Both the position numbers and the translations under genes were made by a program. From NCBI GenBank assembly GCA_041664465.1, contig JBAYKP010000002.1:21190-85189 (forward strand): DNA of 64,000 nt, given 5' to 3'. Positions 16,614 through 51,063 of the stretch are shown one piece after another. Below the pieces are notes generated by a model, which was given only the letters and a program-made list of their open reading frames with translations, did no database searches and was not told where the DNA came from. The stretch's first letter is position 1. Every line of letters starts with the position of its first letter. Source of the stretch: Minisyncoccota bacterium. GTDB lineage: Bacteria; Patescibacteriota; Minisyncoccia; Phycocordibacterales; UBA9973.

Positions 16614-18362
16614 ATGGAATCACAAACTAAAGTGTGTCAAAATTGTAAGCTTAATTTCACAATTGAGCCAGATGATTTTTCATTTTACGAAAAGATAAAA
16701 GTCCCTCCACCAACTTGGTGCCCTTATTGTAGGTTTATACGTAAAATGACATTTATTAACGAGCGTTCTCTTTATAAAAGAGTTTGTGATAATTGTAGTC
16801 AGTCTATGATATCTATGTATAGCCCTGATATACCACTTCCTGTTTGGTGCAATAAATGTCATATAAGTGATACTTGGGACGGAACTATATATAGTAGAGA
16901 TTATGATTTCTCTAGAAATTTTTTTGAACAATATAAAAAATTAAAATATGATGTTCCTCATAGGGCGCTTGATCAAAACGAGCGAAATGGCGAAGGGTGT
17001 GAGTATTCCAATCTATGTTACACCAGTAAAAACATATATTTATCTTTTAATATTATTGGTTCTGAAAATCTTAAGTATTCGGCACATGCTTTTAAGAATA
17101 ATAAAAATTGTTTAGATTCACTTATTTTTAAAAATAATGATAGGGGGTATGAGCTTGTTCAGGCTATTTCTAATTACAACTCATCTTTTTTAATTGAAAG
17201 TGACCAATGTGTAGATTCACATTTCCTTTATGATTGTTCTAATTGTGTTAATTGTTGTTTATCTTCAAATCTTCGAAATAAAAGTTATTTTTTTCAAAAT
17301 CAACAGTTATCGCGTGAAGAATATAAAAAGGCAGTTATGGCGCTTAGACTTGAGACATATTCTGGGCAATTAAATACTAAGAATATTTTTATGCAAATAG
17401 CAAAAGATGCAATTCATAAATACGCGCATATAAAGAATTCAGTAGATGTTATTGGAGATTTTATTGAAAATTCAAAAAATATTTACCATTGCTATGGTCT
17501 TGTAGATGCTATAAATACTAAATATGTATTTTTTGCAGTAAATACAATTGTAGATTCTCAAGATGTAATATTTGCAGGAAAAGTAGAGGAGTGCTATGAG
17601 TTTACTCTTGGTGGTAGGGGAGCTAGTCGTGTAATTTTATCTTTTAGTTGTTCTGGGGGGTGCAAGGATCTATTCTATTGTGATTCGTGTATGAGTTGTT
17701 CAGATTGTTTTGGCTGTGTAGGGTTAAAAAAGAAACAGTATTATATTTTTAATAAACAATATAAGAAGGAAGAGTATTTTGAAATGGTTAAGAAAATTAA
17801 ACAACACATGAATGATATGCCTTATATAGATAAGATTGGTAGAATATATAGCTTTGGGGAATGTTTCCCTACAGAACTTTCTCCTTTTGCTTACAATGAA
17901 ACTCTTGCTTTTAAAGAGAATTTTATCTCAAAAGAAGAAGTAATCTCTTTGGGATATAAATGGAAAGAAATGGAATCAAAGTTATATACTCCAACACTTA
18001 AAACAGATTCTGTGCCAGAGAGTATTAATGATGCTCTAGACACTATTTGTAATGAGATTATTGAGTGTCCCAATCAAGGCAAAGTAGATACACAATGCAC
18101 TTCAGCTTATAAAATATTACCAGATGAGTTAGCATTTTATAGACAAATGAATCTTCCAATACCTAGGTATTGTCCGAATTGTAGATATCACAATCGTTTA
18201 ATTTGGAAGAATCTTTTTCACTTTTACAAACGACAATGTATGTGTAATTCATCAAATCATAATCATAAAGGAAAATGTCAGAATGAATTTGAGACATTGT
18301 ATGCTCCCGACAGAGAAGAATTAATTTATTGTAAAGAATGTTATCAACAGGAAGTGTATTAA
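16614..18362 (+). CDS. Cysteine-rich paralog 1 (582 aa, about 37 Cys), unknown family. Has N- and C-terminal CPxCR zinc-ribbon-like modules and internal CxxCxxC clusters.
   Basis: Shares an N-terminal CQNCKxxFTIEPDDFSFYEKIKVPPPTWCPxCR block, a central KHMNDMPYIDKxGRIYxxGExFPxELSPFAYNET block and a C-terminal CQNEFETxYAPDRxExxYCxxCYQ block with the ORFs at 18401 and 29308. Confidence 0.7.
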   Translation: MESQTKVCQNCKLNFTIEPDDFSFYEKIKVPPPTWCPYCRFIRKMTFINERSLYKRVCDNCSQSMISMYSPDIPLPVWCNKCHISDTWDGTIYSRDYDFSRNFFEQYKKLKYDVPHRALDQNERNGEGCEYSNLCYTSKNIYLSFNIIGSENLKYSAHAFKNNKNCLDSLIFKNNDRGYELVQAISNYNSSFLIESDQCVDSHFLYDCSNCVNCCLSSNLRNKSYFFQNQQLSREEYKKAVMALRLETYSGQLNTKNIFMQIAKDAIHKYAHIKNSVDVIGDFIENSKNIYHCYGLVDAINTKYVFFAVNTIVDSQDVIFAGKVEECYEFTLGGRGASRVILSFSCSGGCKDLFYCDSCMSCSDCFGCVGLKKKQYYIFNKQYKKEEYFEMVKKIKQHMNDMPYIDKIGRIYSFGECFPTELSPFAYNETLAFKENFISKEEVISLGYKWKEMESKLYTPTLKTDSVPESINDALDTICNEIIECPNQGKVDTQCTSAYKILPDELAFYRQMNLPIPRYCPNCRYHNRLIWKNLFHFYKRQCMCNSSNHNHKGKCQNEFETLYAPDREELIYCKECYQQEVY

Positions 18363-18400: not shown

Positions 18401-20170
18401 ATGGATTATAAACCAGAAAATAGAATATGTCAGAATTGTAAGAAAGACTTCACTATTGAGCCAGACGATTTTTCATTTTATGAGAAGATGAAAGTCCCTC
18501 CGCCAACTTGGTGTCCTGAATGTCGTTTTCAAAGAAGGTGTCTTTTCCGTAACGAAAGAAAACTTTTCCGAAATATAGATGGAGTTACTGGTAAGCCAAT
18601 ATTTTCACTTTTTCCATTGGAGGCACATTTTCCAATTTATGAAGATAGTTATTGGGCAAGTGATAATTGGGACCCATTTTCTTATGGGATGGACTTTGAT
18701 AGGTCACGACCATTTTTAGCCCAACTCTTAGAGTTGAATTCAAAGGTACCACGTCCTCGCTCTGATGCTATAAATATGGTAAGAAGTGAATATTCTGCAA
18801 ATGCTGCAGACTTAAAAGATTGTTATTTGATTTTTAATTCAAGCTATACAGAAGATTCAGCATATGGAAATGCCAATGATTATTGCAAAAATTGCTTTGA
18901 TAATTCTCATATTCAAAATTCAGAGAAATGTTATGAATCATTTTGGCTTACTAAATGTTATGATACACATTTTTCTTCACAATGCGAGGATTGTGTTTCA
19001 GTTTGGTTTAGTAAAAATTGTCGTGGATGTACGGATTGTTTTGGCTGTGTAAACTTAACAAATAAATCTCATTGCTTTTTCAATCAATCTTTATCAAAAG
19101 AAGAATACAAAGAAAAGATAAAATCACTTGATTTTTCAAAATGGTCAAATCTCGAAAGAATAAAAAAACAAGTTGGAAAAATATGGTTGAATTTTCCTGT
19201 TAGATATCTTCAAGGTATTAAAAATTATTTATCTGATGGCGAATATGTTGCTTATTCAAAAAATGTTCGTCATAGCTACTTAGTTCGAGGGGGAGAAAAT
19301 CTTGCCTATGTGCAATATGTTCAAGTTCCATCATTAAAAGATTCTATGGATGTTATTGTGGGTGGTTGTAATAGTGAGTTAGTATATGAATCTTCAGCTT
19401 GTGGTTGGGATTCTTCACAAATTCGTTTTAGTATTGAGTGTTGGGACGGGGGAATGGATTTTGAATACAGTATGTTTTGTGGAAAGAAAGCCAGTCATAC
19501 ATTTGGTAGTATTAGTATTTGTAGTGGGGAATATGTTATTTTAAATAAAAGATATTCCAAAGAAGAATTTTATAAACTTAGAGATGAAATACGTAAGCAT
19601 ATGGATGAAATGCCATATATAGATAAAAATGGACGTATTTATAAATATGGCGAATTTCTTCCACCTGAGTTTTCCCCTTTTGCATACAACGATACGATAA
19701 CTCCGGAACATTTTCCTTTATCAAAAGAAGAAATAATCTCCTATGGTGCCAATTGGTATGAGATACCAAAAGTTGATTATGAAACAACAATGAAAGCCAA
19801 AGATATACAGGATGATATAAATGATGTATCGGAAGGTATTTTAAAAGAGATTATTTCTTGTGATAAATGTAATCGTGCTTATAGAATAATTCCTTCCGAA
19901 TTACAATTTTTAAAACAAAACCATATTCCAGTTCCTCGTAGTTGTGTGAATTGTCGTCATGATTTACGTATTTCACAAAGAAATAAAAGTAAACTGTATA
20001 AAAGAAAATGTAATTGTAATGGGAACAATTCAACAAATAATAAATATAAAAATGAAATCAGACATTCCCATGACACCGAAGCTTGCCAAAACGAATTTGA
20101 AACATCTTACTCCCCAGATAGACCAGAGATAGTGTATTGCGAAAAGTGCTATCAGCAAGAAATTTATTGA
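18401..20170 (+). CDS. Cysteine-rich paralog 2 (589 aa), same unknown family
   Basis: Conserved N-terminal, central and C-terminal blocks with 16614 and 29308. Confidence 0.7.
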   Translation: MDYKPENRICQNCKKDFTIEPDDFSFYEKMKVPPPTWCPECRFQRRCLFRNERKLFRNIDGVTGKPIFSLFPLEAHFPIYEDSYWASDNWDPFSYGMDFDRSRPFLAQLLELNSKVPRPRSDAINMVRSEYSANAADLKDCYLIFNSSYTEDSAYGNANDYCKNCFDNSHIQNSEKCYESFWLTKCYDTHFSSQCEDCVSVWFSKNCRGCTDCFGCVNLTNKSHCFFNQSLSKEEYKEKIKSLDFSKWSNLERIKKQVGKIWLNFPVRYLQGIKNYLSDGEYVAYSKNVRHSYLVRGGENLAYVQYVQVPSLKDSMDVIVGGCNSELVYESSACGWDSSQIRFSIECWDGGMDFEYSMFCGKKASHTFGSISICSGEYVILNKRYSKEEFYKLRDEIRKHMDEMPYIDKNGRIYKYGEFLPPEFSPFAYNDTITPEHFPLSKEEIISYGANWYEIPKVDYETTMKAKDIQDDINDVSEGILKEIISCDKCNRAYRIIPSELQFLKQNHIPVPRSCVNCRHDLRISQRNKSKLYKRKCNCNGNNSTNNKYKNEIRHSHDTEACQNEFETSYSPDRPEIVYCEKCYQQEIY

Positions 20171-20259
20171 TTGTTTGATTATATTGAGGTTTTGGGCTAG
20201 TATTGAAATATATGGCACCCCGAAGGAAAGATTACTTCCTACGGGGCAAGGTTATAAAT

Positions 20260-21024
20260 ATGAATATCATTATAAAGACAAAAGAACAAATAGAGATTAT
20301 ACGAGAAGGGGGGAAGATTTTGGCGGAGGTATTGAAGAAGGTGGCTAAAAAAGTATCTCCGGGGATTTCGACATACGAACTTGATAAATATGCGTACGAT
20401 TTGATAAAAGAGAAGAGTGGAATCCCAGCATTTTTGAATTACAGGCCAGAAGGTGCACCGAAAGCTTTTCCTGCTTCTATATGTATATCAGTGAATAATG
20501 AAGTTGTTCATGGTATTCCTAGTAAGAATAAAATTTTGAAAGAAGGAGATATTGTCTCTCTTGATTTAGGACTCAAATACAAAGGGCTCTTCACTGACCA
20601 TGCTGTGACTGTGCCCGTGGGGAAGATTTCAAAGAAGGACCAGGATTTGCTCGATAAGACGAAGAAAGCCCTAGAAATAGGCATTTGGGCAGCTCGTGGA
20701 GGGGCTACAGTGGGTGACGTTGGTCACGCCATAGAATCATTTGTGAATAGGAAATATGGCATAGTTCGCGAGCTTTCAGGGCATGGTGTAGGGGTGAAAA
20801 TTCACGAAGATCCATATGTGCCGAACTATGGTAAAGCTGGTAAAGGGCAGAAATTAATTCCAGGAATGATTATAGCCATTGAGCCAATGCTAAATATTGG
20901 AAAGGACAATATAACTGTTGCCAATGATGATTGGACTATTAAAACAGCCGATGGCTCTCATTCTGCTCATTTTGAGCATACGATTCTCATTACCGAAGGT
21001 GACGCGGAAATATTAACTAAGTAA
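20260..21024 (+). CDS. map: Methionine aminopeptidase type I
   Basis: Metal-ligand pattern (D..D..H..E..E) and typical MAP-I sequence. The ORF-track start at 20203 adds 19 non-conserved residues. Confidence 0.88.
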   Translation: MNIIIKTKEQIEIIREGGKILAEVLKKVAKKVSPGISTYELDKYAYDLIKEKSGIPAFLNYRPEGAPKAFPASICISVNNEVVHGIPSKNKILKEGDIVSLDLGLKYKGLFTDHAVTVPVGKISKKDQDLLDKTKKALEIGIWAARGGATVGDVGHAIESFVNRKYGIVRELSGHGVGVKIHEDPYVPNYGKAGKGQKLIPGMIIAIEPMLNIGKDNITVANDDWTIKTADGSHSAHFEHTILITEGDAEILTK

Positions 21025-21146
21025 AAACACTCCATAAAAACATTCTCAGACTCACCACACAATAAAATTCTGCTGAATTTTTTGCTCGCACTCGGCCCGT
21101 CGGCCTGCGTGAGGGTTCGCTTGAGAACATTTTTTATTTCGTGTTT
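21023..21146 (+). repeat. Palindromic repeat element copy A (about 124 bp, starts inside the map stop codon)
   Basis: About 97% identical to 61522-61644. The core matches 31957-32040 and 48461-48542. Terminal arms aaaaacattctcagactcacc / ggttcgcttgagaacattttt are inverted repeats. Confidence 0.8.
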
Positions 21147-21180
21147 AATTAGCCCATATAGATTTTTTAGAATAGTCTCT

Positions 21181-21260
21181 GAGAAGGGGCCGGCGCAGGC
21201 TGTCGAGCCGAGCAATGAGCAAATTTCTAGCAAGAAATTATGTGATTCACCAGAATCACC
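21181..21260 (-). repeat. Diverged inverted copy A' of the same repeat core (head-to-head with copy A)
   Basis: The reverse complement contains tgctcggctcgacagcctg, identical to the copy C core, and a homologous cacataatttcttgctagaaattt segment. Confidence 0.6.
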
Positions 21261-21337
21261 TAAGGGCAGAAATATTCAGGAGAGCTATTCAAAAAATCTA
21301 GATACCAACATTTATAGATCATTTTTTCTTTTTCTTG

Positions 21338-21346
21338 TGGTATAAT
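21338..21346 (+). promoter_or_regulatory. Extended -10 (tggtataat) 6 nt upstream of the ATG at 21353
   Basis: Motif and spacing. Confidence 0.45.
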
Positions 21347-21352
21347 AAAACT

Positions 21353-24085
21353 ATGGAAGGATTAAATCTAAACAATGCTCCTAAATTTAAAACCCCAGAA
21401 GAAGAGTTGGTATTTTTGCGTGCTCACTTGGCTGAACATGAGAAGAAACTCAATGAAAAAGGGCAAGAAGTAAACAAAGAAGATATTGCTCACAATTTAA
21501 TCTCTGAATATAGAAAGCTTGAGCCGACAGATGTAATGCATAAAAGTGCCGTGATAAATAAAAATGAAGCTGAAGGCTTAGTCTTGCGATTAAAGCCTGA
21601 GAATCACGACAGTAAAATGGAAGAGCTTCTCGGTATTCTCTTGGATAAAGGTATTTCCAATACTCTTTCCATTGTGGCGAAGATGAATAATCCTCACCTA
21701 GATGATGACTTTCACCGTTTCCTTGTCCAGTATTTATACAGTACTCATAAAGTGCCGGGGCTTAAAGAAGGCACTCCTCTTTTCAAATCTCTTGATATGA
21801 AACTTTTCGAAATTACTCTGCCTGATGTCAGCGAAGATGATAAAGACAAGAAAGGTTTGAAAGAATTACTCTCTGCCATGGAGCAATTCTATGCTGGTAT
21901 GCATTCAGTCGGAGAAGGAAGAGAGAATTATAATAGAAATCATTTTACTTTAGAGATTGCCCTCGCTGAAGGGACGGACAGCTTCATCTTTTATGTCGCA
22001 GTACCTACTCACAAGGCAGAATTATTTGAAAAGCAATTACTTGGAGTTCATTTAAATGCGAAAATTACAGAAGTTCCTGATGATTATAATATTTTCTCTC
22101 CCAATGCATTTATCAGTGCCTCTTATGCAACCTTGGCTCATCACGAAGTCTATCCGATAAAGCTCTATGATACGATTGATCATGATCCACTCAATATAAT
22201 TCTAAATGTTTTCACTAAATTAAAAAAGCATGGAGAAGGTGCTTCTATTCAGTTCACTATTTGTCCGGAAGATGAAGATATTATCAGGAAGTTTCATATT
22301 ATCCATTCGGATGTGAAAAGTGGTATGTCTGTACGTACCGCTTCGAGTATGACTCGCCAAGTGACCAAGGAATTGAAAAATATAGCCAGCGAATTATTCT
22401 TCGGAGCTTCTAAAAAGAAAGAAGAGAAGCAAGTGAATGATAAAGCTGTGGAATATATTGGAGAGAAGTTGAAGAGTACCATAATGGCTACCAATATTCG
22501 TATCATCGCTTCAGCTGAATCGCAATTACGCTCAGAGCAAATATTATCTGAAATAGAATCTTCTTTCAATCAATTCACCGAAGCCGATCGCAATGGGTTT
22601 AACTTTAATCATCCTAAGGGGGGCTCACTTATGAATCTCATTCACGATTTTTCTTATAGAACATTTTCAGATGATTATTCTATGCCACTTAATCTTAAGG
22701 AGCTTGCTACTATTTTCCACTTTCCGAATAGCATTGTATCTTCACAGCTCAAGCAGGCTAAGGCCGGCTTTGCCCCAGCCCCACTTGAAATGGGCAATGA
22801 AGGAATTCTACTTGGTATCAATAGTTTCAGGGGCAAAGATACAGAGGTACGAATGAGTCGCGAAGACAGACTCCGTCATATGTATGTCATTGGTCAGACG
22901 GGTACAGGTAAGACGACAATATTGAAAAATATGATTGCCCAAGATATCAAGAATGGCGATGGCTGTTGCTTTATCGATCCACACGGTAGTGATATCCAGG
23001 ATATACTTTCTTATGTGCCCAAAGAAAGAATTGACGATGTCATTTACTTTGACCCTGCTTATACTGCTCGTCCGATGGGGCTTAATATGCTCGAGTATGA
23101 TCCGAAATATCCCGAGCAGAAGACTTTCGTCGTGAACGAATTGATGAGTATTTTCAATAAACTTTTTACGAAAGAATCTATGGGCCCTATGTTTGAGCAA
23201 TATTTTAAGAATAGTGCCTTCCTGGCAATGGATGATCCGAACAATCATGCCACTCTTCTAGACATCACTCGCATCTTAGGCAATAAAGAGTATAGAGATT
23301 CACTTTGTGAAAAATGTAAGAATCCTATTATCAAAGAATTTTGGGTTAATGCTGAGAAAACAACAGGGGACCAATCCATCGCCAACTTTGTACCATATAT
23401 TTCATCCAAATTTGATAACTTTATTTCCAACGATATAATGCGCCCTGTTGTTCTCCAAGAAAAATCTTCATTTAACTTCCGTGAAATAATGGACAATAAA
23501 AAGATTCTTCTGATAAACCTTTCAAAGGGAAGACTTGGAGATATCAATGCTAATCTCATTGGGCTTCTACTTGTGGGGAAGATTCAGATGGCAGCACTTT
23601 CTCGTGTAGATATGTATGGGCAAAAGATGAATGACTTCTATCTTTATATTGATGAATTCCAGAATGTGACGACTGATTCTATTGCCTCTATTCTTTCTGA
23701 GGCACGTAAGTATCGCTTGTCCTTAACTGTTGCTCACCAATATATTTCTCAGCTAGAAGAAAAAATAAAGGATGCTGTCTTCGGCAACGTCGGCTCGATG
23801 GCTGTCTATCGTATCAGCTCTGAAGATGCAGTCGCCGTAGAACCGAAATTCAAACCAACTTTCACCGCAGCGGATATTATGAAGCTTGATAATTTCAATT
23901 CATATGTGAGTATGCTTATAGGTGGAGTACCGACGAAGCCTTTCAGTATGACTTCCCATTGGAGTCTCACTCCCAAAGGCAACACTGAGATAGTAGATAA
24001 AATAAAAGAATTATCATATCTCAAATACGGCCGTCTCCGCGAAGAGGTAGAAGAGGAAATAATGAATAAATACAGAAAAGAATAA
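21353..24085 (+). CDS. VirB4/VirD4-superfamily (type IV secretion-type) P-loop ATPase with a roughly 480 aa N-terminal domain of unknown function
   Basis: Walker A GQTGTGKTT followed by IDPHGS, Walker B LYIDEF and a C-terminal AHQYISQL motif, all typical of TraC/VirB4/TraG-like ATPases. No N-terminal TM segment. The ORF-track TTG start at 21335 is replaced by the ATG at 21353. Confidence 0.55.
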   Translation: MEGLNLNNAPKFKTPEEELVFLRAHLAEHEKKLNEKGQEVNKEDIAHNLISEYRKLEPTDVMHKSAVINKNEAEGLVLRLKPENHDSKMEELLGILLDKGISNTLSIVAKMNNPHLDDDFHRFLVQYLYSTHKVPGLKEGTPLFKSLDMKLFEITLPDVSEDDKDKKGLKELLSAMEQFYAGMHSVGEGRENYNRNHFTLEIALAEGTDSFIFYVAVPTHKAELFEKQLLGVHLNAKITEVPDDYNIFSPNAFISASYATLAHHEVYPIKLYDTIDHDPLNIILNVFTKLKKHGEGASIQFTICPEDEDIIRKFHIIHSDVKSGMSVRTASSMTRQVTKELKNIASELFFGASKKKEEKQVNDKAVEYIGEKLKSTIMATNIRIIASAESQLRSEQILSEIESSFNQFTEADRNGFNFNHPKGGSLMNLIHDFSYRTFSDDYSMPLNLKELATIFHFPNSIVSSQLKQAKAGFAPAPLEMGNEGILLGINSFRGKDTEVRMSREDRLRHMYVIGQTGTGKTTILKNMIAQDIKNGDGCCFIDPHGSDIQDILSYVPKERIDDVIYFDPAYTARPMGLNMLEYDPKYPEQKTFVVNELMSIFNKLFTKESMGPMFEQYFKNSAFLAMDDPNNHATLLDITRILGNKEYRDSLCEKCKNPIIKEFWVNAEKTTGDQSIANFVPYISSKFDNFISNDIMRPVVLQEKSSFNFREIMDNKKILLINLSKGRLGDINANLIGLLLVGKIQMAALSRVDMYGQKMNDFYLYIDEFQNVTTDSIASILSEARKYRLSLTVAHQYISQLEEKIKDAVFGNVGSMAVYRISSEDAVAVEPKFKPTFTAADIMKLDNFNSYVSMLIGGVPTKPFSMTSHWSLTPKGNTEIVDKIKELSYLKYGRLREEVEEEIMNKYRKE

Positions 24086-29307: not shown

Positions 29308-31029
29308 ATGAAAAGTGAGACGAAAAACTGCCAGAATTGCAAAAAAGACTTTACTATTGAGCCAGATGATTTTTCTTTTTATGAGAAAATAAAAGTCCCT
29401 CCGCCAACCTTTTGCTCGGAATGTAGAATGATACGAAGGATGATTTGGAGAAATGAGAGGTCTTTTTATCATCGTAATTGTGATTTGTGTGGAGAAAAGA
29501 TAATTTCAGTTTTTGATGATAAAAATTTGAAAATTTATTGCCAGAATTGTTGGCTTAGTGATAAATGGGAATCTTTGGAATATGGAGTAAATTATGATTT
29601 CTCCGCATCATTTTTTTCTCAGTATTCAGGTTTATATAAAAATATACCACTAATAAATTTAAATGGGCATATTTCAAATAAAAACTCACCGTATGTAAAT
29701 TATATTGTTCAGGCTAATAATTGCTATTTTTGTTTTGGTGGAGGATATATAGAAAATGTTATGTTTTCTAATGTTGGGGTAAGAATAAAAGATTCAATGG
29801 AAATATTTTTCTCAATGGATTGTGAATTTTGTTATGAAATATTAAATTGTCAGAAATGTTATCGTATTTATTATGGAAATAATTTGAAAGACTGCATGGA
29901 TAGTTATTTTTTGCAGGACTGCGTGAATTGTAAGGACTGTATCATGTCCTGTAATTTAAGGAATAAATCTTATTGTTTTAAAAATCAACAATTAACTAAA
30001 GAAAAGTTTTTGGTCAAAAAAGAAGAATTTTTAAATAAACTACAGAAAAATATTTATTCTCTTAAAAATGAATTTAAGGAAGTATTGATTAAAAGTCCTA
30101 AAAAATTTGCCAATATTTTGAAATCAGAATTTTCTACAGGTGATAATATCTCTGAAAGTTCACGAGTGGTAAATAGTTTTAATATTTCTAAGAGTGAAAA
30201 TTGTAAAAATTCACAAGATATAGTTGGAGTTGCTCGTGATATCTACGATACAACAAGTGCTGGGTTAGGACTGGAAAATATGTATGAATCAATGTCTGTA
30301 AGTATGAATATTTTGAATTCATTTTTTTCTTTATCAATAAGAAATGATTCTTTTAATATAAATTATTCTTTTGGGTTAACTTCATGTTCCAACTGCTTCG
30401 CCTGCATCGGTCTCCGCTCCAAACAATACTGCATCCTCAACCGCCAATACACCAAAGAAGAATACGAGAGCCTTGTCCCCAAAATCATAAAGCATATGAA
30501 CGACATGCCCTATATAGATAGTAAAGGTAGAATCTACAAATACGGTGAATTCTTCCCAAGTGAACTCTCACCCTTTGCCTACAACGAAACCATAGCCCAA
30601 GAATACTTCCCATTAACAAAGGATGAAGCTCTACAACAAGGCTACAAATGGAAAGACAAGGAAGAACGTAACTACAGTATAGATATACATACAGAAAACA
30701 TCCCAGATTCCATTAAAGACATACCTGATACAGATATCCTAAACAAAGTCATAGAATGTAACCATAAAGGAACCTGTAATCAACAATGTACAGAAGCCTA
30801 TAAGATTATACCCGAAGAACTATCCTTCTACAGACGTATGAATTTACCTCTACCTCGTCTCTGTCCTAACTGTAGACACTATGAACGTCTTTCTCAACGA
30901 AACCCTATGAAATTATGGCATAGAGCCTGTATGAAGCCTGGATGTACCAATGAATTTGAGACATCTTATGCTCCAGAGAGACCGGAGATTGTTTATTGTG
31001 AGAAGTGTTATCAGGGGGAGGTGTATTAA
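29308..31029 (+). CDS. Cysteine-rich paralog 3 (573 aa), same unknown family as 16614 and 18401
   Basis: Same N-terminal, central and C-terminal conserved blocks. Confidence 0.7.
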   Translation: MKSETKNCQNCKKDFTIEPDDFSFYEKIKVPPPTFCSECRMIRRMIWRNERSFYHRNCDLCGEKIISVFDDKNLKIYCQNCWLSDKWESLEYGVNYDFSASFFSQYSGLYKNIPLINLNGHISNKNSPYVNYIVQANNCYFCFGGGYIENVMFSNVGVRIKDSMEIFFSMDCEFCYEILNCQKCYRIYYGNNLKDCMDSYFLQDCVNCKDCIMSCNLRNKSYCFKNQQLTKEKFLVKKEEFLNKLQKNIYSLKNEFKEVLIKSPKKFANILKSEFSTGDNISESSRVVNSFNISKSENCKNSQDIVGVARDIYDTTSAGLGLENMYESMSVSMNILNSFFSLSIRNDSFNINYSFGLTSCSNCFACIGLRSKQYCILNRQYTKEEYESLVPKIIKHMNDMPYIDSKGRIYKYGEFFPSELSPFAYNETIAQEYFPLTKDEALQQGYKWKDKEERNYSIDIHTENIPDSIKDIPDTDILNKVIECNHKGTCNQQCTEAYKIIPEELSFYRRMNLPLPRLCPNCRHYERLSQRNPMKLWHRACMKPGCTNEFETSYAPERPEIVYCEKCYQGEVY

Positions 31030-32489
31030 AATATTACTTTCTTTGCTTCCTCAAATAATTCATCTATTCTTTCTTGAGTTTTTGCTTCACCGAAGAGTTT
31101 AATTATTGGTTCTGTATTTGAAGGACGAAGGTGGAGCCAAGAACTATCCGGTAAGTCTAGGCGTAGGCCATCTTGTTCATCATATGTAGCATCTTTAAAA
31201 TGCTCTTTCAATTTAATGTACATTTGTTTTAGGTCAGAGCCCAATGGCCATTTATCTTTCTTTATTATATATTTTGGCAATTCTTCCATCAGTTCACTTA
31301 TAGTTTTATTTCTCTCTGCCATAAGTTCAAGGATTAAAGCAAGTCCCGTAAAACTATCACGGACTGTATTTATAATAGGGTAGATTATTCCACCATTTCC
31401 TTCACCTCCAACTATTGCATTATGAGCTAGTATTCCTTCTACGACGAATCCTTCGCCAATTTTAGTTCGGAATGTTTCACTTCCATATTTTTTAGCTACA
31501 TCAGCTCCTCTTTGTGAAGTAGAAAGATTAAGCACTATAGGCTTACCTGGATGTTTTGATATCACATTTTCTATTACCAATGCTATAGAATTTTCTTCTG
31601 ACTCCACAATTCCTTTATCACTTACCAATACCAGCCTATCAGCATCAGGATCATGGACGAAGCCTACATCTACTTTTTTTTCAACAACTAATTTTTCTAT
31701 ATCGCCTAGATTCTCACGAAGAGGCTCTGGTCTGTGCCCGAATTTACCATTAGGGATATTGTTTAAGGGATATACTTCTACTCCTAGTTGTTCAAATAAA
31801 TAAGGATCCATCACACAAGCTGAAGCATTGATCATATCAACAGCTACTTTGAATTTCTTAGCACGGATTACTTCTACATTTATATTTTCTAATATTTTAT
31901 CAGCATGTTCTTTGAGAAAGTTTGGTGTAATGTTAGATGGATTTTCGCTCGACTCATTATTCCCGTCAGCACGCGATAAAATTCTACTGAATTTTTCGCT
32001 AGTGCTCGGCTCGACAGCCTGTGCAATGCTTCCTGGAACAATGAGTTCTCGCTCAAATCCATCCCGTTCGAATTTCTTAATTTCTTCTTCATAATATTTA
32101 TTTATCCTTTCTACTTCTTCATTTACAGTGAAAAGAGCTTTATCATTTACAAATTTGAGGCCGTTATATTCTATTGGGTTATGACTTGCGGTAATTATTA
32201 TAGCTCCATCATATCCGTGTTTACGAACAGAGAATAGAACTGTCGGCGTTGGAAGTATATCTCCATATACTGCTTCTACTCCCAGATTTTTTAATTCATT
32301 TAGAATTATTTCTCTTATCTCAGGTCCAGACTCACGACCATCTCTGCCAATTAAAATAGTAGGATGTTCCTTTTTTTCTTTTAAAAATGAAACGAAAGCA
32401 CGCGTATATAAAATAACCACCTCTTTACTAAGTGATTCACCCCAGATACCTCTATATCCAGAGACATTAATTCTTTGTTTAAATTCCAT
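31026..32489 (-). CDS. Phosphohexomutase (phosphoglucosamine mutase / phosphomannomutase family) carrying an in-frame repeat-element insertion
   Basis: GAIIITASHNP (active Ser), DPDADR, GGEGNGG and RPSNTEP motifs. The inserted peptide GSIAQAVEPSTSEKFSRILSRADGN is encoded by the repeat at 31951-32047. The ATG at 32489 is preferred over 32546. Confidence 0.8.
   Translation of the reverse strand: MEFKQRINVSGYRGIWGESLSKEVVILYTRAFVSFLKEKKEHPTILIGRDGRESGPEIREIILNELKNLGVEAVYGDILPTPTVLFSVRKHGYDGAIIITASHNPIEYNGLKFVNDKALFTVNEEVERINKYYEEEIKKFERDGFERELIVPGSIAQAVEPSTSEKFSRILSRADGNNESSENPSNITPNFLKEHADKILENINVEVIRAKKFKVAVDMINASACVMDPYLFEQLGVEVYPLNNIPNGKFGHRPEPLRENLGDIEKLVVEKKVDVGFVHDPDADRLVLVSDKGIVESEENSIALVIENVISKHPGKPIVLNLSTSQRGADVAKKYGSETFRTKIGEGFVVEGILAHNAIVGGEGNGGIIYPIINTVRDSFTGLALILELMAERNKTISELMEELPKYIIKKDKWPLGSDLKQMYIKLKEHFKDATYDEQDGLRLDLPDSSWLHLRPSNTEPIIKLFGEAKTQERIDELFEEAKKVIF
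31951..32047 (+). repeat. Palindromic repeat element copy C, in-frame inside the phosphohexomutase gene
   Basis: The core attcccgtcagcacgcgataaaattct..ctgaatttttcgctagt..ctcgg...gcttcctggaaca is shared with 48461-48542. Flanked by inverted gactcatt / aatgagt. Confidence 0.8.
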
Positions 32490-32526
32490 TCCTTTATAAT
32501 ACCAGTTTTTGAGGAATGAGGGAATA

Positions 32527-32952
32527 TTATTGAAAACTAATTTCAAATGGATACATTCCCATACCGCAGGAGCCGTTTAGGGTGCCGGCTGGTTGTGTAC
32601 TGAGGTCTATATCTGTACTTCCTGATTGTGGGAGACTTTTAAAGATATTCATAGAAGGAATTCTGACAGAAGAAGAGCAATCAAAAGTTCCATTTGTGTT
32701 AAATCTTAAAATTGTAGGAATTCCTGCCTTTGCAATACTTTTCCTTGGTTGGTAACCACCTTTAGCATTTATCTCTATAATTTGTTTACCATCTACTACC
32801 GAAACATTCTTTATAGAAGTTTCTTGTGTTGTTCCAGTACTATTATTACTAGAATCATTTGATTGATTACTTGTTTTTCCACTCGTAAGAACAATAGCAA
32901 ATATAATTAATGCCGCTGATACTACTATTGAGATGATTGTGTTTTTTGTCAT
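32527..32952 (-). CDS. Cupredoxin-like domain membrane-anchored protein
   Basis: C-terminal GSCGMGMYPFEI resembles the cupredoxin-like Y-x-C-x3-H/x-x2-M motif. Paralog of 44140-44499. Confidence 0.45.
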   Translation of the reverse strand: MTKNTIISIVVSAALIIFAIVLTSGKTSNQSNDSSNNSTGTTQETSIKNVSVVDGKQIIEINAKGGYQPRKSIAKAGIPTILRFNTNGTFDCSSSVRIPSMNIFKSLPQSGSTDIDLSTQPAGTLNGSCGMGMYPFEISFQ

Positions 32953-32953
32953 T

Positions 32954-34015
32954 TTAAAAATTAAATATTGGCTTTATTAATCCGATTACGACCAAACTAT
33001 TCAATACATTCATTATAGCAAAAAGTATGACGATAAGCCCAGCTGACTTGAAGAAGATGCCAGAGTTTTTATTATTCTTTATACTAAAAGAACTGAAGCT
33101 TATCAAAGCAAGTACAGGAAGAGTCCCTAAAGCAAAAGCAAACATTGTAAGAGCTCCATTCATGAAACTTCCAGTAGAAAGAGTGTATATCTGCATTGAT
33201 TGAGTAAATCCACATGGAAGAAAGAATGTAGCTATGCCAACTAAAATTGGAGTGAGAGAGTGGTTTAATTTGGAAATATTGAAAGCTCTTTTTGATATAA
33301 ACTTTGGCATGCTTAATTGCAGTTTTTTAGTAGAGTGGAATACATCAAGCAAGTTTATACCCATGATAAGCATAACTATGCCTATAAATATTCCTAAGCC
33401 AAACGCTGCTCCAGTATTTAAAGTGAATACACTTCCAAGAGCACCGATAACTCCACCTAATATAAAAAATGAGACGAGCCTACCGAGATGGAAAAGTATT
33501 TGAGGCTTCACCTTATCGCCTTCTTGGGCGAAAGTTGCCGACATTGAGAGGACAAGTCCTCCGACGACGGCCATACAAGTAGAGAGGGAAGCGATAATCC
33601 CGACCACAAAAGCAGTCCCATAAGTAATTTTTGATGTATTTATTAGATTTACCAGTCCAATCTTTTGCAAGATTATAAATAAAGCAATAAATAATAAAGC
33701 CACAGGTATCGCGATTTTAAAATCTGACCAATTTTTGTCTCTTTTTTGTTTTTCAAGTGAGAGAGTATATCCGTGAGGTTTTAAAACAGTTGTTAATTCT
33801 TCTGCTATCTGTTCTATTGTCTTATCTCCGAAATCCCCCTCTATTTCTACGGAAGTATTCTTGAGGCTTGATCTCACGTGTGTTATATAAGGTAATTCCT
33901 TTAATTCACTTTCAGTTAAGAGTACACAAGAATTGCAGTGCATACCATTTACATGAAATTTATATTTTGTTGTTTGATTTTGATTGTTCATATAGTTAGA
34001 TATACAATTTACCAT
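32954..34015 (-). CDS. HMA (heavy-metal-associated) domain fused to a CcdA/DsbD-like polytopic membrane domain
   Basis: N-terminal GMHCNSC motif. TM Cys motifs STC and LPCGFT resemble the CcdA SPC/TPC pattern. Confidence 0.55.
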   Translation of the reverse strand: MVNCISNYMNNQNQTTKYKFHVNGMHCNSCVLLTESELKELPYITHVRSSLKNTSVEIEGDFGDKTIEQIAEELTTVLKPHGYTLSLEKQKRDKNWSDFKIAIPVALLFIALFIILQKIGLVNLINTSKITYGTAFVVGIIASLSTCMAVVGGLVLSMSATFAQEGDKVKPQILFHLGRLVSFFILGGVIGALGSVFTLNTGAAFGLGIFIGIVMLIMGINLLDVFHSTKKLQLSMPKFISKRAFNISKLNHSLTPILVGIATFFLPCGFTQSMQIYTLSTGSFMNGALTMFAFALGTLPVLALISFSSFSIKNNKNSGIFFKSAGLIVILFAIMNVLNSLVVIGLIKPIFNF

Positions 34016-34061
34016 AAAAAAATACCTTTTACAATTAAGTATTTATCTACATAAAATATTA

Positions 34062-34086
34062 TATACCCCCTAGGGGTATATGTCAA
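34062..34086 (-). promoter_or_regulatory. CsoR-type operator palindrome (tatacccc-cta-ggggtata) lying between ttgaca (-35) and an AT-rich -10 on the minus strand
   Basis: Near-identical palindromes at 34782-34806 and 44792-44818. Resembles the published Bacillus CsoR operator (TACCC...GGGGTA). Confidence 0.6.
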
Positions 34087-34722: not shown

Positions 34723-34781
34723 ATAATTTACTTTTGTTTATTTTTATAATAAATACAGTCCGACAAACTTATATAATATTA

Positions 34782-34806
34782 TATACCCCTAGGGGGTATG
34801 TGTCAA
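34782..34806 (-). promoter_or_regulatory. CsoR-type operator palindrome (tatacccc-ta-gggggtat) + ttgaca -35 upstream of the SHOCT/DUF302 pair
   Basis: As for 34062. Confidence 0.6.
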
Positions 34807-41900: not shown

Positions 41901-44135
41901 TTAAACTATATTTTTTTTCTTAAGCCAAAGTGAATTTCCGACGACGGAAATAGAACTCGTTGCCATCGCTACTGATGCGAAAATAGGATTGAGGAGGATG
42001 TGGAAAAGAGGGTAGAGAGCTCCCATAGCTACGGGGATTAATATAACATTATATCCGAATGCCCAGAAAAGATTTTGGCGGATAGTTCGCATAGTTTTCT
42101 TGGATAAGACAATCGCTGCCGCAACGGACCTCAAATCTTTATTGATAAGAGTAATATCAGCGGCTTCTATCGCTACATCAGTTCCACTCCCCATTGCAAT
42201 CCCTACGTCAGCAGCAGCGAGAGCAGGGGCGTCATTGATACCATCTCCTACCATTGCTACAACTTTACCTTCTGCTTGTATTTTTCGTACCTCTTTTTCT
42301 TTTTGATCAGGGAGAACTTCTGCAAGGATTCTAGCAATGCCTAACTTTTGACCTATTGCATTGGCAGTTCTTTGATTATCTCCTGTGATCATTACAGTCT
42401 CAATGCCAAGCTTTTGCAATGCTATTAATCCTTCACGAGCACTTTCTTTTATGATATCAGCAACAGCAATGAATCCAATAAGTTTATTTTCTCGCCCTAT
42501 CATCATCACAGTCTTACCATTGTTTTCCATTTCGGTTATTCCACTAAGAGCACTACTTATATCAATGCCTTCTTTGTCCATCAATCTCTTATTACCGAAA
42601 ACAATTCTTTTACCATCTATAAAGCCTTCAACTCCGTGTCCAGGAATTGCTTGGAATTTTTCTACTTTTATTAGTATGAGTTTTTCTTCTTCTGCTTTTT
42701 TTACAATTGCTTCTGCAAGAGAATGCTCGGAACCTTTCTCTATAGAACCCGCAAGTTTTAATAGCTCGTCACTAGATATTGTTTTATCTATTGAAACAAT
42801 GTCTGTAACTTCTGGTTCTCCTTTTGTGAGAGTTCCTGTCTTATCAAAAATAATTGTATTGATTTTATGAGCTATTTCTAGACTCTCAGCATCTTTTATA
42901 AGGATACCGTGCTCTGCACCTTTACCTGTACCTACCATAATTGCCGTCGGAGTAGCGAGGCCCATAGCGCAAGGACAAGCAATTATAAGAACAGCAACAG
43001 TGTTTAATATTGCAAATAATAAAGTAGGTGCAGGCCCAAATATATACCAGATTGCGAAAGTAAGTATAGCAAGCATTATTACAACTGGTACGAAATATGA
43101 AGATACTAAATCAGCCAAGCGCTGGATAGGTGCTTTACTTCCTTGGGCTTCTTGAACCAGTTTTATGATCTGAGCGAGCATTGTCTCGCCTCCTATTTTT
43201 GTAGCTTTGAAAGTGAAAGTGCCGGTTTTGTTCATTGTTGCGCCTACGACTACGTCGCCTTTTGTCTTATCTGTGGGGATACTTTCCCCCGTAATCATAG
43301 ATTCATCGATAGAAGATTCTCCTTCTATAATAATTCCATCTACAGGAATTTTCTCGCCTGGTCTTACTCGTATAATATCTCCAATGATTACTTCACTTAT
43401 AGGTAAGTCTATCTCTTTCCCGTCGCGCATTACACGAGCAGTCTTGGCTTGAAGTCCGATAAGCTTTTTAATAGCTTCCGAAGTTCCAGCTTTAGCCTTT
43501 GCTTCAAAATAGCGCCCTAATAATATAAGACCAATGATAATTACTGTCGTATCAAAATAAGGCATTGGCTCAATGCCTATCTTTTGTACAAGATGAGGGA
43601 ACAAAATTACAAAAACAGAATACGCATATGCGACAGTTGTACCTATGACTACGAGTGTATCCATGTTTGCAGTCCTGTGCTTGATAGCTGAGAGAGCAGC
43701 ACGGTAGAAAGTAAAGCCAGCCCAGAATTGTACGGGAGTAGCGAGGATGAATTGAACCCAGAAATTTCTCAAAATCATAGGTGAAGTTTCCATAAGTCCT
43801 GGGAAAGCTCCCCATAAAATCAAAGCTCCTAGACCAAGACTTATTATAACTTTAGTGCGTAAACTACGAAGATCTTTTAATTTTTCTTTTTGTTCCTCAT
43901 CTTCTGTTTTTACTTCTTCGTCTAAAAGGGCAATGTATCCGACGTTAGAAATAGCACTAGATAGCTTTTCATCTGTTACTTTACTTGGATCGTATGTTAC
44001 TGTCGCTTTCTCTGTCGCTAAGTTTACTATGGCACTAGAAATACCATCTACTTTTTTAAGTGAGCCTTCTATTATTGCCACGCATGAAGCGCAATGTATT
44101 CCTTTTATTGCAAATGTTTTTTTATTTTGTTCCAT
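41901..44135 (-). CDS. copA: Copper-translocating P1B-type ATPase
   Basis: N-terminal HMA GIHCASC, TM CPC motif ([10 protein letters not shown]), DKTGTLT phosphorylation site and [10 protein letters not shown]. Confidence 0.92.
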
Positions 44136-44781: not shown

Positions 44782-44791
44782 ATAAAACATC

Positions 44792-44818
44792 TTATACCCT
44801 AGGGGGGTATAAGTCAAG
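44792..44818 (-). promoter_or_regulatory. CsoR-type operator palindrome (ttataccc-ta-ggggggtataa) + ttgac on the gene strand, 11 nt upstream of the csoR ATG
   Basis: Same palindrome as at 34062 and 34782. Sits in the -35/-10 spacer position. Confidence 0.65.
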
Positions 44819-47785: not shown

Positions 47786-47858
47786 CCGCACTTAGCTCAG
47801 TTGGTAGAGCAATCCGCTTATACCGGATCGGTCCTAGGTTCAAGTCCTAGAGTGCGGA
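47786..47858 (+). tRNA. tRNA, anticodon TAT by manual fold (tRNA-Ile UAU)
   Basis: Manual cloverleaf: acceptor ccgcact/agtgcgg, D arm agctcagttggtagagc, anticodon stem atccg/cggat with loop cttatac, T arm ctagg-ttcaagt-cctag, discriminator A. No encoded CCA. Confidence 0.65.
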
Positions 47859-47863
47859 CAATT

Positions 47864-50167
47864 TTATTCAAAATGCAATTTTAGGTTTTTGTCGGTGAGA
47901 GTTTTCGAGAGGAGAGGGGAGGATTTGAGATATACATCAGAAGTGATCATTTTGATGGCTTCGGTACGGGCGGCTTCCACCATTTTTATATTCTTTATAG
48001 CTTCCATTCCGAGGTCGGTGATGCCCCATTGTTTATCGCCAGAGAGAAGTCCTGCTCCGCGGAGTGTTAGATCAAGCTCTGCCAATTCAAATCCATTAGC
48101 TGCTTTGGTTAAGGCTTTTAATCTGTCTATTGTTTTGTCACTCTTAGCATCGGCAAACAAATAACAATATGACTGGTATGTGGAGCGGATAACTCGTCCA
48201 CGAAGCTGATGAAGCTGTGCGAGGCCAAATCTCTCTGCTCCTTCTATTATGATGACTGTGGCATTAGGGACGTTTACCCCTACTTCTATTACAGAAGTAG
48301 AAACGAGAATATCTATTTTCTTTTCAGCGAAATCTTTCATCACTTTCTCTTTCTTCTCTTTGCTCATTTTACTGTGCATGATATCTATATTGTAATTTGG
48401 GAAGATATCTTTTTTCAGTCTTTTTGCTTCTGAGGTAACGGCTCGTAGGTCGGACAGAGTATTCCCGTCAGCACGCGATAAAATTCTGCTGAATTTTTCG
48501 CTAGTACTCGGCCCGTCGGCCTCCGTAATGCTTCCTGGAACACTCTGTCCGACCTCCTCGCCTTTCCCTAAAACACTTTCTCCGAGCTCCTCTCCGATTT
48601 TCGGACAAATTACATAAAGCTGTCTACCAGCTTCTAATTCCTTTTTAATTTTCTCATAAGAACTTTCTCTTTTATTCTCTGGCACAATTTCTGTAATGAC
48701 TTGTTTACGTCCCGCGGGCATCTCATCAATGATGCTTAAGTCCAAGTCTCCGTATATAGTGAGAGCGAGAGTACGGGGAATGGGAGTAGCAGTCATAGAG
48801 AGGTAGTGCGGTGCGTGGCCGTGCTTCTTCACTAGTTTCATTCTTTGATTCGTGCCAAAGCGGTGCTGTTCATCTATTATGACTAATCCTAAATCTTTGA
48901 ATTCTACAGATTTTGATATGAGTGCATGAGTGCCTATCACTATCGGTATCTCACCATTTTTAATCCATTTCAAAAGTTGATTTTTAGATATAGTGGTCCA
49001 AGTTTTCACTTGTGTACCTTTCTCCCACGGAGCCGATTTACTTGGGAATTTACGGCATCCAGAGCCTGTCATAAGAGCGATAGAGATACCAGTGTGTTCA
49101 AAATACTGGATAAAATTCTCATAAAGTTGCGTTGCAAGTACTTCCGTCGGAGCCATATAAGCTACCTGTAAATTTCCATATTCTCCATACTGAGAAGTTC
49201 CGGTTGTGTTCTTGATTACAGCATAAGCGACAGTTGCTGCCACGAAAGTTTTCCCACTTCCTACGTCTCCTTCAATAAGACGAGACATTGGCTTATCTTT
49301 TATAAAGTCTTCTAGTATCGTATCTATCGCACTTGTTTGGGCCTTGGTCGGAGTAAAAGGGAAACGTCCAACGAAGTCAGTAATATCTTTGTGTGGAATT
49401 TTAAGTTTGTATGAAAAGTTTTCTTGATATTTCTTTTTTTCTTGTTGGCGAGAAAGTTGAATGAAAAACACTTCCTCAAAGGCAAATCTTTTGCGTGCTA
49501 TTTCGGCATGCTCTTTCTTAGCTGGCATGTGGACCCAGATCAAAGCTGTGTGTAAAGCGGGTAATTTGTAAGTATTTAATATTTCACTTGGGATATAATC
49601 TACTATATCTTTCACACAACCTTGCTTCAATATCTTCTGTATAGCATGATAGAACCATTTAGAAGTGATGCCACGACTTTCTCGATAAACAGGGAAGCCG
49701 AATTGCGTTTCCACTCCTTTATTACTCCAAAGTGAATCGTGAATATCTATCGGCAGGATATCTTCTTTATTTATTTCTGGATTTGTGAGAGTAGGGCCGT
49801 AAGTTTTACTATTTGTAACTTTTCCTGTCACTCGCACAGTTGAGCCTTCTTTAAGCATCTTTGCAAGGTATGGCTGATGGAACCAGATGATATTGATAGA
49901 GCCAGTCAAATCAGAAAGTACAGCCTGCCCCATTGGGATTTTACTTTTGAATCCCTTTTTAGTTTTAAGTCCTGTGAGTTTCCCTAAGATGGTGATGTTC
50001 TCACCTTCTGTTAGAGTATTGATATTTCTAACTTCACTTATATCACTATAACGAGAGGGGAAATGATAAAGTAGGTCTCTCAAAGTTTTGAGTCCAAGCA
50101 CTGATAACGCCTTTTTCTGATTTACATCAAGGCGAAAATGATTTTCAATTTTATCGGTTAGATTCAT
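47864..50167 (-). CDS. recG: ATP-dependent DNA helicase RecG carrying an in-frame repeat-element insertion
   Basis: GDVGSGKT, DEQHRFG, and wedge and helicase motifs. The inserted peptide VPGSITEADGPSTSEKFSRILSRADGN is encoded at 48447-48555. Confidence 0.9.
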   Translation of the reverse strand: MNLTDKIENHFRLDVNQKKALSVLGLKTLRDLLYHFPSRYSDISEVRNINTLTEGENITILGKLTGLKTKKGFKSKIPMGQAVLSDLTGSINIIWFHQPYLAKMLKEGSTVRVTGKVTNSKTYGPTLTNPEINKEDILPIDIHDSLWSNKGVETQFGFPVYRESRGITSKWFYHAIQKILKQGCVKDIVDYIPSEILNTYKLPALHTALIWVHMPAKKEHAEIARKRFAFEEVFFIQLSRQQEKKKYQENFSYKLKIPHKDITDFVGRFPFTPTKAQTSAIDTILEDFIKDKPMSRLIEGDVGSGKTFVAATVAYAVIKNTTGTSQYGEYGNLQVAYMAPTEVLATQLYENFIQYFEHTGISIALMTGSGCRKFPSKSAPWEKGTQVKTWTTISKNQLLKWIKNGEIPIVIGTHALISKSVEFKDLGLVIIDEQHRFGTNQRMKLVKKHGHAPHYLSMTATPIPRTLALTIYGDLDLSIIDEMPAGRKQVITEIVPENKRESSYEKIKKELEAGRQLYVICPKIGEELGESVLGKGEEVGQSVPGSITEADGPSTSEKFSRILSRADGNTLSDLRAVTSEAKRLKKDIFPNYNIDIMHSKMSKEKKEKVMKDFAEKKIDILVSTSVIEVGVNVPNATVIIIEGAERFGLAQLHQLRGRVIRSTYQSYCYLFADAKSDKTIDRLKALTKAANGFELAELDLTLRGAGLLSGDKQWGITDLGMEAIKNIKMVEAARTEAIKMITSDVYLKSSPLLSKTLTDKNLKLHFE
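48447..48555 (+). repeat. Palindromic repeat element copy D, in-frame inside recG, flanked by a perfect 14-bp inverted repeat (aggtcggacagagt / actctgtccgacct)
   Basis: The core at 48461-48542 matches copy C and the cores of copies A and B. Confidence 0.85.
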
Positions 50168-50774: not shown

Positions 50775-50864
50775 GGATGAGTGGCCGAGAGGCTTAAGGC
50801 AGCGGTTTACTAAACCGCCGTTCTGTAAAAAGAACCGTGAGTTCGAATCTCACCTCATCCGCCA
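50775..50864 (+). tRNA. Class II (long-variable-arm) tRNA with encoded CCA and an atypical anticodon loop (ttactaa; canonical reading gives anticodon ACT)
   Basis: Acceptor ggatgag/ctcatcc, discriminator G, CCA encoded, T arm gtgag-ttcgaat-ctcac, anticodon stem gcggt/accgc. Identity unresolved. Confidence 0.5.
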
Positions 50865-51001: not shown

Positions 51002-51063
51002 GATTCGAAAAGCGTATTCGCGGTCTCACCTCATCCGCAAAAGTTTTAAAAATTTGGTATAAT
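51002..51063 (+). promoter_or_regulatory. Degenerate copy of the tRNA 3' half (agattcgaa ... ggtctcacctcatccgc) followed by the ccgcaaaagtttt motif and extended -10 tggtataat; promoter of the aldo-keto reductase
   Basis: Sequence comparison with 50840-50864 and with 58619-58652. Confidence 0.4.

Follow-up and report, generated by a model that had tools for sequence, protein, structure and literature searches.

Among the closest described counterparts of the element reported here are the RPE of Rickettsia, palindromes of about 100-150 bp that insert in frame into genes of a reduced, host-dependent bacterium and have no known transposase (PMC10969869). We analysed a 64,000-nt stretch of a Minisyncoccota bacterium genome (hereafter the window, in whose coordinates all positions are given; assembly GCA_041664465.1, contig JBAYKP010000002.1, positions 21,190-85,189 of the forward strand) and describe a Y-shaped palindromic repeat that occurs in it as five copies, A to E. 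Copies A and B stand head to head between map, the methionine aminopeptidase gene, and a gene for a TraD/VirD4-like ATPase. Like RPE, the element is short and palindromic, occupies both intergenic and in-frame sites (the latter in RecG and phosphoglucomutase, PGM) and adds a peptide at a tolerated surface or linker position. The differences, which we draw from host and architecture rather than from a comparison with RPE consensus sequences, are that its hosts are Patescibacteria and not Rickettsia, that its fold is a three-way junction whose two inner hairpins are conserved while the outer stem is hypervariable and co-evolves, that only ~5% of copies lie in genes, and that the family is superphylum-wide.

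Two other groups of small repeats invite comparison. The REP, BIME and REPIN repeats, mobilised by RAYT (IS200/IS605-like) transposases, are non-autonomous palindromes outside genes that work in the form of a folded single strand, often at gene 3' ends and often next to an inverted copy; the element described here shares these traits and also carries a strand-specific signal. However, a REP measures 20-40 nt, carries GTAG as its conserved head and is linked to a RAYT gene, whereas this element is 100-150 nt long with a consensus that lacks GTAG. [quoted passage not shown] Our element likewise stays below the ~500 bp expected of a MITE and is non-coding, with terminal inverted repeats and five dispersed copies in 64 kb. 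Yet classical MITEs conserve their terminal repeats, whereas in this element conservation lies in the centre, the arms varying but remaining complementary; furthermore, our scan of 38 window ORFs revealed no related autonomous insertion sequence, and a clear target-site duplication was not found. Membership among classical MITEs is thus unproven. These phyla are absent from a 2024 review of prokaryotic MITEs (PMC10969869), and our literature search, whose coverage was incomplete and which is no proof of novelty, returned no such element described in the candidate phyla radiation (CPR). What is distinctive is the combination of a conserved three-way-junction core, co-evolving arms, spread across a superphylum and pairing long kept within coding sequence. 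We favour, with moderate confidence, the reading that a mobile palindrome, small, non-coding, non-autonomous and specific to Patescibacteria (CPR), has inserted twice, independently, in 21023-21303.

Five Y-shaped palindromes in the window

A covariance model trained on 54 copies, with 98 positions and 28 base pairs, was run over the window with all filters off. Exactly five matches emerged, the next best candidate reaching only 13.8 bits. Copies A (21039-21138; E-value 6e-17) and E (61538-61637) each score 82 bits, copies D (48455-48554) and C (31953-32052) score 76 and 75 bits, all four on the + strand, and copy B (21164-21261, - strand) scores 41 bits (E-value 3e-7). Repeat finding also related copy A to 31951-32040 and 48453-48542, and aligned it at 95% identity over 118 nt with 61521-61638, part of copy E, the flanks of the two being unrelated. 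When single-stranded, the element adopts a Y fold composed of an outer stem that differs by copy, an A/T-rich hairpin with a YUGCUR loop (P2) and a G/C-rich hairpin with a CGUC-type loop (P3). It measures 100-150 nt; its outer arms, typically 20-40 bp and complementary (median aligned arm 28 nt), form terminal inverted repeats, and the intergenic copies have stop codons in all frames and so no coding capacity. Together, the family takes up ~1% of the window's DNA.

At the locus of the head-to-head pair, the map ORF (20203-21024, +; Pfam Peptidase_M24, E-value 3e-47) ends with a TAA at 21022-21024; its true start probably lies downstream of 20203, homologues aligning from about codon 18-20. Copy A, of the 'intergenic' subtype and in model (+) orientation, occupies 21023-21146 (ends AAAACAC...GTGTTT). 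A preliminary description of this DNA had placed its start within the map stop codon and its length at about 124 bp, and both hold. The inverted, diverged copy B that it reported at 21181-21260 is also real, but those limits take in the core alone: the palindrome, of the 'AATAGCT' subtype and on the - strand, extends over 148 nt (21156-21303; covariance-model core 21164-21261). Measured between full palindromes, the spacer is 9 nt (21147-21155) instead of the ~35 bp given earlier. Further on, the extended -10 box TGGTATAAT at 21338-21346 precedes the ATG at 21353 by six nucleotides, exactly as described, an arrangement typical of leaderless promoters. The gene that starts there (21353-24085, +; 910 aa) had been taken for VirB4-like. 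Its VirB4 match is faint (E-value 0.006) and its best matches are TraD/VirD4 coupling ATPases of the HerA/FtsK type (Pfam TrwB_AAD_bind, T4SS-DNA_transf and TraG-D_C), with NCBIfam TraD/VirD4-like models matching below their cut-offs.

The remaining copies occupy different settings. Copy C (31936-32063, +) lies in frame within a phosphoglucomutase/phosphomannomutase gene (31026-32546, -), between domains I and II, and copy D (48433-48569, +) lies in frame within the RecG gene (47864-50167, -), between the two helicase lobes; these two share a 'coding' subtype within unrelated genes. Copy E (61521-61647, +), the near-twin of A, fills the entire gap of two convergent genes, and its ends (TAAAAACAC...GTGTTTTTA) include the stop codons of both. 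One of these genes (61645-62841, -), whose stop codon falls within the terminal arm of copy E, encodes a 398-aa protein with an N-terminal CxxC segment that matches only the ATP-grasp part of cyanophycin synthetase/GshAB (E-value 4e-61, far below the family cut-off).

Individual folds are stable. The palindrome proper of copy A begins at 21025, right after the map TAA, and comprises a long, interrupted outer stem (21025-21049 with 21121-21146), P2 at 21060-21084 (AAAATTC-TGCT-GAATTTT) and P3 at 21085-21113 (GGCC-CGTC-GGCC core). Its fold reaches -33.9 kcal/mol (z -4.0), and no shuffled sequence was equally stable. Copy B, at -46.0 kcal/mol, has the same inner modules in reversed orientation, with outer arms at 21159-21180 and 21279-21300, a P3 equivalent at 21198-21209, a compensated P2 variant at 21222-21239 (AATTTCT/AGAAATT) and an extra small hairpin at 21242-21259.

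The two cores are complementary over 19 nt (84%), and the preliminary description had proposed that the pair could form an RNA hairpin or cruciform of more than 200 nt, which RNA folding of the region should reveal. This held in part. In the minimum free energy RNA fold of 21015-21300, the cores of A and B do pair with each other (-82.2 kcal/mol, z -3.9), a value near equal to the summed self-folds of A and B (-79.9 kcal/mol). Across the RNA ensemble, however, within-copy pairing dominates, with 29 expected pairs within A and 39 within B (68 in total) against 16 between them, and with DNA parameters A-B pairing is essentially zero. The folding models thus leave the ~200-nt A:B hairpin as a possible minor RNA conformer rather than the predicted structure, and predict no cruciform of that size.

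A rival reading takes the head-to-head pair itself as a functional or replicative unit, a doublet like those of REPIN or BIME whose inverted copies would pair into one long hairpin (RNA or single-stranded DNA) or a cruciform. Besides the A-B pairing in the minimum free energy fold, adjacent inverted pairs do recur, eight of them including the window against about three direct pairs. Of the seven in other genomes, four pair mainly within copies and three mainly between them, between-copy pairing dominating the RNA ensemble in loci L026, L032 and L138. The excess of inverted over direct pairs is not significant, though, and single elements are the rule. Whereas the arms of a REPIN are alike, A and B belong to different subtypes, are 65% alike and pair mostly within themselves (exclusively so with DNA parameters), and only B is shared with the two related loci that also hold two elements (L137 and L138, below). 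We consider a doublet of this kind very improbable.

The map/traD-like junction in relatives

We compared the junction across 80 metagenomic loci encoding a map relative of 52-91% identity. Where a locus extends far enough past map, one and the same 911-aa gene (N-terminus MEGxNLNNAPKFK) almost always comes next; L146 and L147 are exceptions. The intervening DNA varies in content. The junction is empty in L121, L124, L128, L134 and L136, where the spacer measures 7-9 nt and the map stop codon and the -10 box (TGATATAAT) share nucleotides. It holds one element, with a spacer of 141-172 nt, in L120, L125, L133, L139, L142, L144, L149 and L160, and two elements (+ then -), with a spacer of 325-373 nt, in L137 and L138. 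L142 carries the copy A subtype at the identical position. The second element of L137 and L138 is flanked as copy B is (agcccRtatagatttttt ... aaaaaatctagataccaacattt) and is therefore read as its orthologue; copy A is not shared with either locus. A small module, CTGCCCTTAGGTGATTYTGGTRAATCA (21242-21276 in the window), is shared by copy B and the first L137 element but missing from the copy B orthologue of L138.

Further loci hold other palindromes. Unrelated ones occupy the junction in L122, L157, L129, L131, L198, L151 and L127 (one example reads gtaagcttcgcaggattattaaaattatttcc...ggaaataattttaacaatcctgcttcgc), and L158 has a B-type segment in reverse orientation. In L143, L145 and L148, a hairpin of ~150 nt (cccgttagaagccgcggtcac...gaccgcgacctgcttctaacggg) separates the -10 box from the ATG and gives the otherwise leaderless gene a structured leader. 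Elements have thus been gained and lost at the map locus. Because relatives hold no, one or two elements, or unrelated palindromes, the pair in the window would reflect two independent insertions rather than a designed unit. From these comparisons, the junction is by all appearances a permissive insertion hot spot, copy B the apparently older insertion, shared with relatives, and copy A a seemingly younger subfamily whose near-identical copy E lies 40 kb away.

The downstream promoter is preserved almost throughout. TGnTATAAT stands 6-8 nt before the ATG in almost all variants (~30 loci), empty sites included, and this conserved spacing supports the leaderless promoter that had been proposed for the ATPase gene. 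The window adds to that support: of the 17 TATAAT-N5-8-ATG sites it contains, 11 mark the beginning of an ORF with 80 or more residues, genes so arranged starting at 2151, 15240, 16614, 29308, 51070, 53941, 57175 and 58659 on the + strand and at 4003 and 10624 on the - strand. Leaderless starts therefore look common in this genome. A 32-nt promoter-like repeat present twice (51032-51063 and 58621-58652) terminates in TGGTATAAT/TGCTATAAT.

In-frame copies and the wider family

Copies C and D run antisense to the model orientation within their genes, and both encode ...VPGSI..PSTSEKFSRILSRADGN.... Copy C adds ~53 residues (...VPGSIAQAVEPSTSEKFSRILSRADGN...) to PGM, and a PGM relative, L207, is without the entire insert and palindrome. 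We also considered that the outer arms might be inverted duplications of the host target; this is unsupported for PGM, where L207 is without the whole palindrome. As an aside, gene calling splits PGM of L207 (13616-14921) into two ORFs that overlap, the reading frame shifting by +1 at ...KYYDHS*/MTIPNF..., and the break falls exactly at the position of copy C in the window, either as a sequencing frameshift or as a scar of element loss.

RecG provides a longer record. Among its 120 closest relatives, the best of which are Nomurabacteria and Paceibacterota, empty proteins of 722-733 aa (...VICPKIADGDDEEEKIKLDVKSVT...) stand against filled ones of 752-791 aa, some with nested insertions. In four relatives (P0016, P0052, P0074 and P0098), insertions lie within inserted elements and RecG grows to 788-828 aa. 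The DNA of five filled orthologues keeps the Y fold, at -47 to -68 kcal/mol. Six orthologous copies, the window's included, have six different P2 stems, all fully paired (AAAATTC/GAATTTT, AAAACCT/AGGTTTT, AAATCTC/GAGATTT, AAAATCC/GGATTTT, ATTTTTC/GAAAAAT and AAATCTTC/GAAGATTT). The outer stems, of 20-30 bp, are species-specific yet complementary, and stem changes shift the encoded residues in a correlated way (F..RI to P..KV, for example). One 'empty' allele, in L205, keeps only the short palindrome GAGGTCGG|CGACCTC, and since L205 sits among filled relatives, this looks like the footprint of a central deletion.

We next turn to the family at large, whose census relied on the exact 21-nt P2 hairpin motif in a one-genome-per-species collection. 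The motif occurs in at least 119 genome-contig stretches, nearly all of them metagenome-assembled genomes of Patescibacteria from many classes. Hosts among the matches listed include Nomurabacteria, Paceibacterota, Saccharibacteria and WWE3 as well as Wildermuth-, Doudna-, Yanofsky-, Lloyd-, Vogel- and Zambryskibacteria; the few matches listed from other phyla fail the covariance model. With that model we recovered more than 120 copies over many Patescibacteria lineages, and further copies were found within the fetched 8-kb loci. Around the motif, the outer stems are often 20-40 bp long with near-perfect pairing, and they differ at almost every locus.

Covariation is extensive. With a hand-specified structure, 85% of alignment cells are paired, against a maximum of 52% when the partners are slid, and the covariation score is 0.41 compared with 0.13 for shuffled alignments. 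A model-fitted alignment of 122 copies gives 87.5% paired cells and double-sided changes at 28 of 28 pairs; it is biased towards the model, although its slid controls (at most 53%) are nonetheless far lower, and none of 500 shuffles matches the observed value on any of five measures. The stems are not homogenised within a genome, because two copies in one contig of L206 carry different P2 stems. A P2 stem shared per genome, as a sequence-specific trans-acting factor or gene conversion between copies would produce, was rejected on that ground and on the difference of copy B from A, C, D and E. It is possible, and we propose only tentatively, that the Y fold is actively maintained by compensatory change, even at the cost of altered RecG residues, which would make this a structure-constrained element of superphylum-wide range.

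The same pattern bears on whether the core is a binding site that the host needs, for a nucleoid, replication or recombination protein, or a structured or small RNA gene, its dispersal being secondary. Loops and junctions of P2 and P3 conserved over many CPR classes, covarying stems, a fold long kept inside RecG and strand-asymmetric wobble pairs (below) all fit such a role. Presence or absence at orthologous sites is polymorphic, however; copies stand in either orientation with no conserved promoter or terminator around them, and chimeric, nested and partly deleted copies exist. Nor does any Rfam family match: at the gathering thresholds of Rfam 15, only tmRNA and tRNAs are found in the window, and at an E-value of 10 or less the sole match in 20950-21400 is a chance snoRNA. 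Weighing these points, we give a host-required core little credence.

Variants and possible carriers were also surveyed. A second architecture with the same P2 (GGTCACRC-ATAAAATTCTGCTGAATTTTT-GCGCGACC), seen for example in L022, L031, L041, L052, L055, L071 and L096, adds a hairpin CCGNCTC-GGCNCC... and then GCACAAARTNT...ACTTTGTGC; scoring 40-50 bits by the model, it may be a longer sister family. In L098 (3950-4050, -), at the end of a 2.3-kb ORF, a chimera joins an 'AATAGCT' left arm and P2 to the reverse complement of an A-type left arm, as expected from recombination of inverted copies within the near-palindromic P2. Carriage by phages was considered and set aside: a 21-mer scan of viral contigs gave two weak, AT-rich partial matches (25-32 bits), probably not real copies, and from these sequences the family does not appear to be phage-borne.

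Placement, strand asymmetry and significance

Copies occur in every class of intergenic region. Tandem gene pairs hold 33 in the same and 27 in the opposite orientation, divergent pairs 18 and convergent pairs 10; the corresponding intergenic lengths are 61, 23 and 13 kb for tandem, divergent and convergent regions, so that copy counts are roughly proportional to available DNA, which argues against a dedicated terminator or 3'-untranslated-region function. Copies within genes are a minority. The median distance of copies is 25 nt from gene 3' ends and 78 nt from 5' ends (p 0.016), the bias expected if purifying selection removes insertions that disrupt promoters. When copies are oriented by GC skew, only a weak trend appears (66:39, Wilcoxon p 0.07), from which we draw no conclusion.

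These counts bear on a second host-serving role, one that REP, ERIC, Correia and SPRITE elements can play, in which the hairpins act in cis as RNA to stop or attenuate read-through from map into the traD-like gene or to protect the 3' end of map mRNA. The element shares with intrinsic terminators a stable hairpin directly 3' of a stop codon: copy A sits at that of map, copy E abuts two, and copies across the family are nearer to gene 3' than 5' ends. Folds are very stable, the downstream gene has its own -10 box in almost all relatives, and effects of this kind are documented in bacterial MITEs, which can be co-transcribed and processed by RNases (PMC10969869). An intrinsic terminator, however, has a T-run, and our scan of 20900-21500 detected no combination of GC-rich stem and T-run on the + strand; the element is also far larger, Y-shaped and present in divergent regions and genes. 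Relatives manage with an element-free junction of 8 nt, both orientations relative to flanking genes are equally frequent, divergent regions are not depleted, and copies lie within the coding sequence of RecG and PGM, where termination would be harmful. The terminator role raised in the preliminary description is thus not supported, and we hold a host-serving cis-acting RNA in general to be unlikely.

The two strands of the element are not equivalent. The minus-strand fold is the more stable in 112 of 127 copies, and in the outer arms, oppositions on the model strand comprise 133 A.C against 64 G.T (p 1e-6). The A.C excess on the model strand means that wobble pairs are tolerated on the other strand. 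By analogy with REP/RAYT and IS200/IS605, this asymmetry points to a strand-specific single-stranded state, whether RNA or single-stranded DNA.

Under our preferred reading, that of two independent insertions of a mobile palindrome, copy B would have inserted first at the map/traD-like junction, copy A arriving later and separately. To spread, the element would have passed through a single-stranded intermediate, strand-specific and recognised by its fold, much as in REP/REPIN-RAYT and IS200/IS605-type systems, and pairing would have been kept through selection on the fold or hairpin-templated correction. At the junction, the element would merely lengthen the 3' region of map with two stable hairpins, which could incidentally influence read-through, RNase III processing or mRNA stability.

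Several points weigh against this reading. The 38 window ORFs scanned, all core genes or uncharacterised, yielded no mobilising enzyme and no transposase (RAYT and Y1 among those sought). There is no unambiguous target-site duplication; copy E could have TA...TA flanks, which are ambiguous in A/T-rich palindromic ends, and the other copies do not fit. We saw no direct sign of recent transposition within a population. The superphylum-wide conservation of the inner hairpins and the covariation within coding sequence exceed what is expected for decaying selfish DNA, and both could indicate a host function. Three of our measurements also carry biases: the 21-mer preselects copies with a consensus P2 and so overstates P2 conservation, the context counts rest on crude ORF calls, and kinship among related copies inflates the wobble-asymmetry statistics.

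The window holds further features of note. Three paralogues of ~580 aa on the + strand (16614-18362, 18401-20170 and 29308-31029) have no Pfam or NCBIfam match and share a C-terminal C...NEFET.Y.P.R.E..YC..CYQ.E.Y pattern, zinc-ribbon-like in appearance; two stand in tandem directly upstream of map, and the third converges on the PGM gene in which copy C lies. A 36-nt repeat present three times (34051-34086, 34771-34806 and 44782-44817), centred on the palindrome TATACCCC(C)TAGGGGGTATA, adjoins genes for HMA-domain, DsbD-like and P-type ATPase proteins (32954-34015, 41901-44135) and presumably resembles the operator of a CsoR-type metal-responsive repressor. ARAGORN reports putative tRNAs with unusual anticodons: a tRNA-Ser (ACT; 50775-50864, +) beside a divergent tRNA-Ser(GCT), and, at 47786-47859 (+), a tRNA-Ile (TAT).

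Patescibacteria genomes are among the smallest and most streamlined, yet this window spends ~1% of its DNA on one repeat family. Besides Rickettsia, the family provides a second, independent case of selfish palindromes in frame within essential genes (RecG and phosphoglucomutase), and a natural experiment in which base-pairing is conserved within coding sequence over a long evolutionary distance. Its empty and filled sites are a ready marker of genome dynamics in uncultivated lineages. The copies also mislead annotation: spurious ORFs, split genes and 'extra domains' arise from them, and an annotator could take them for terminators or small RNAs. Should a dedicated enzyme recognise the Y fold, it would constitute a new mobile-DNA system. 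Should the fold be actively maintained, this would imply either new strand-specific machinery in Patescibacteria (for instance an enzyme of the HUH type or another that recognises hairpins) or a host process relying on these hairpins, and the element would be a recurrent source of new peptide segments in the essential proteins of minimal genomes.

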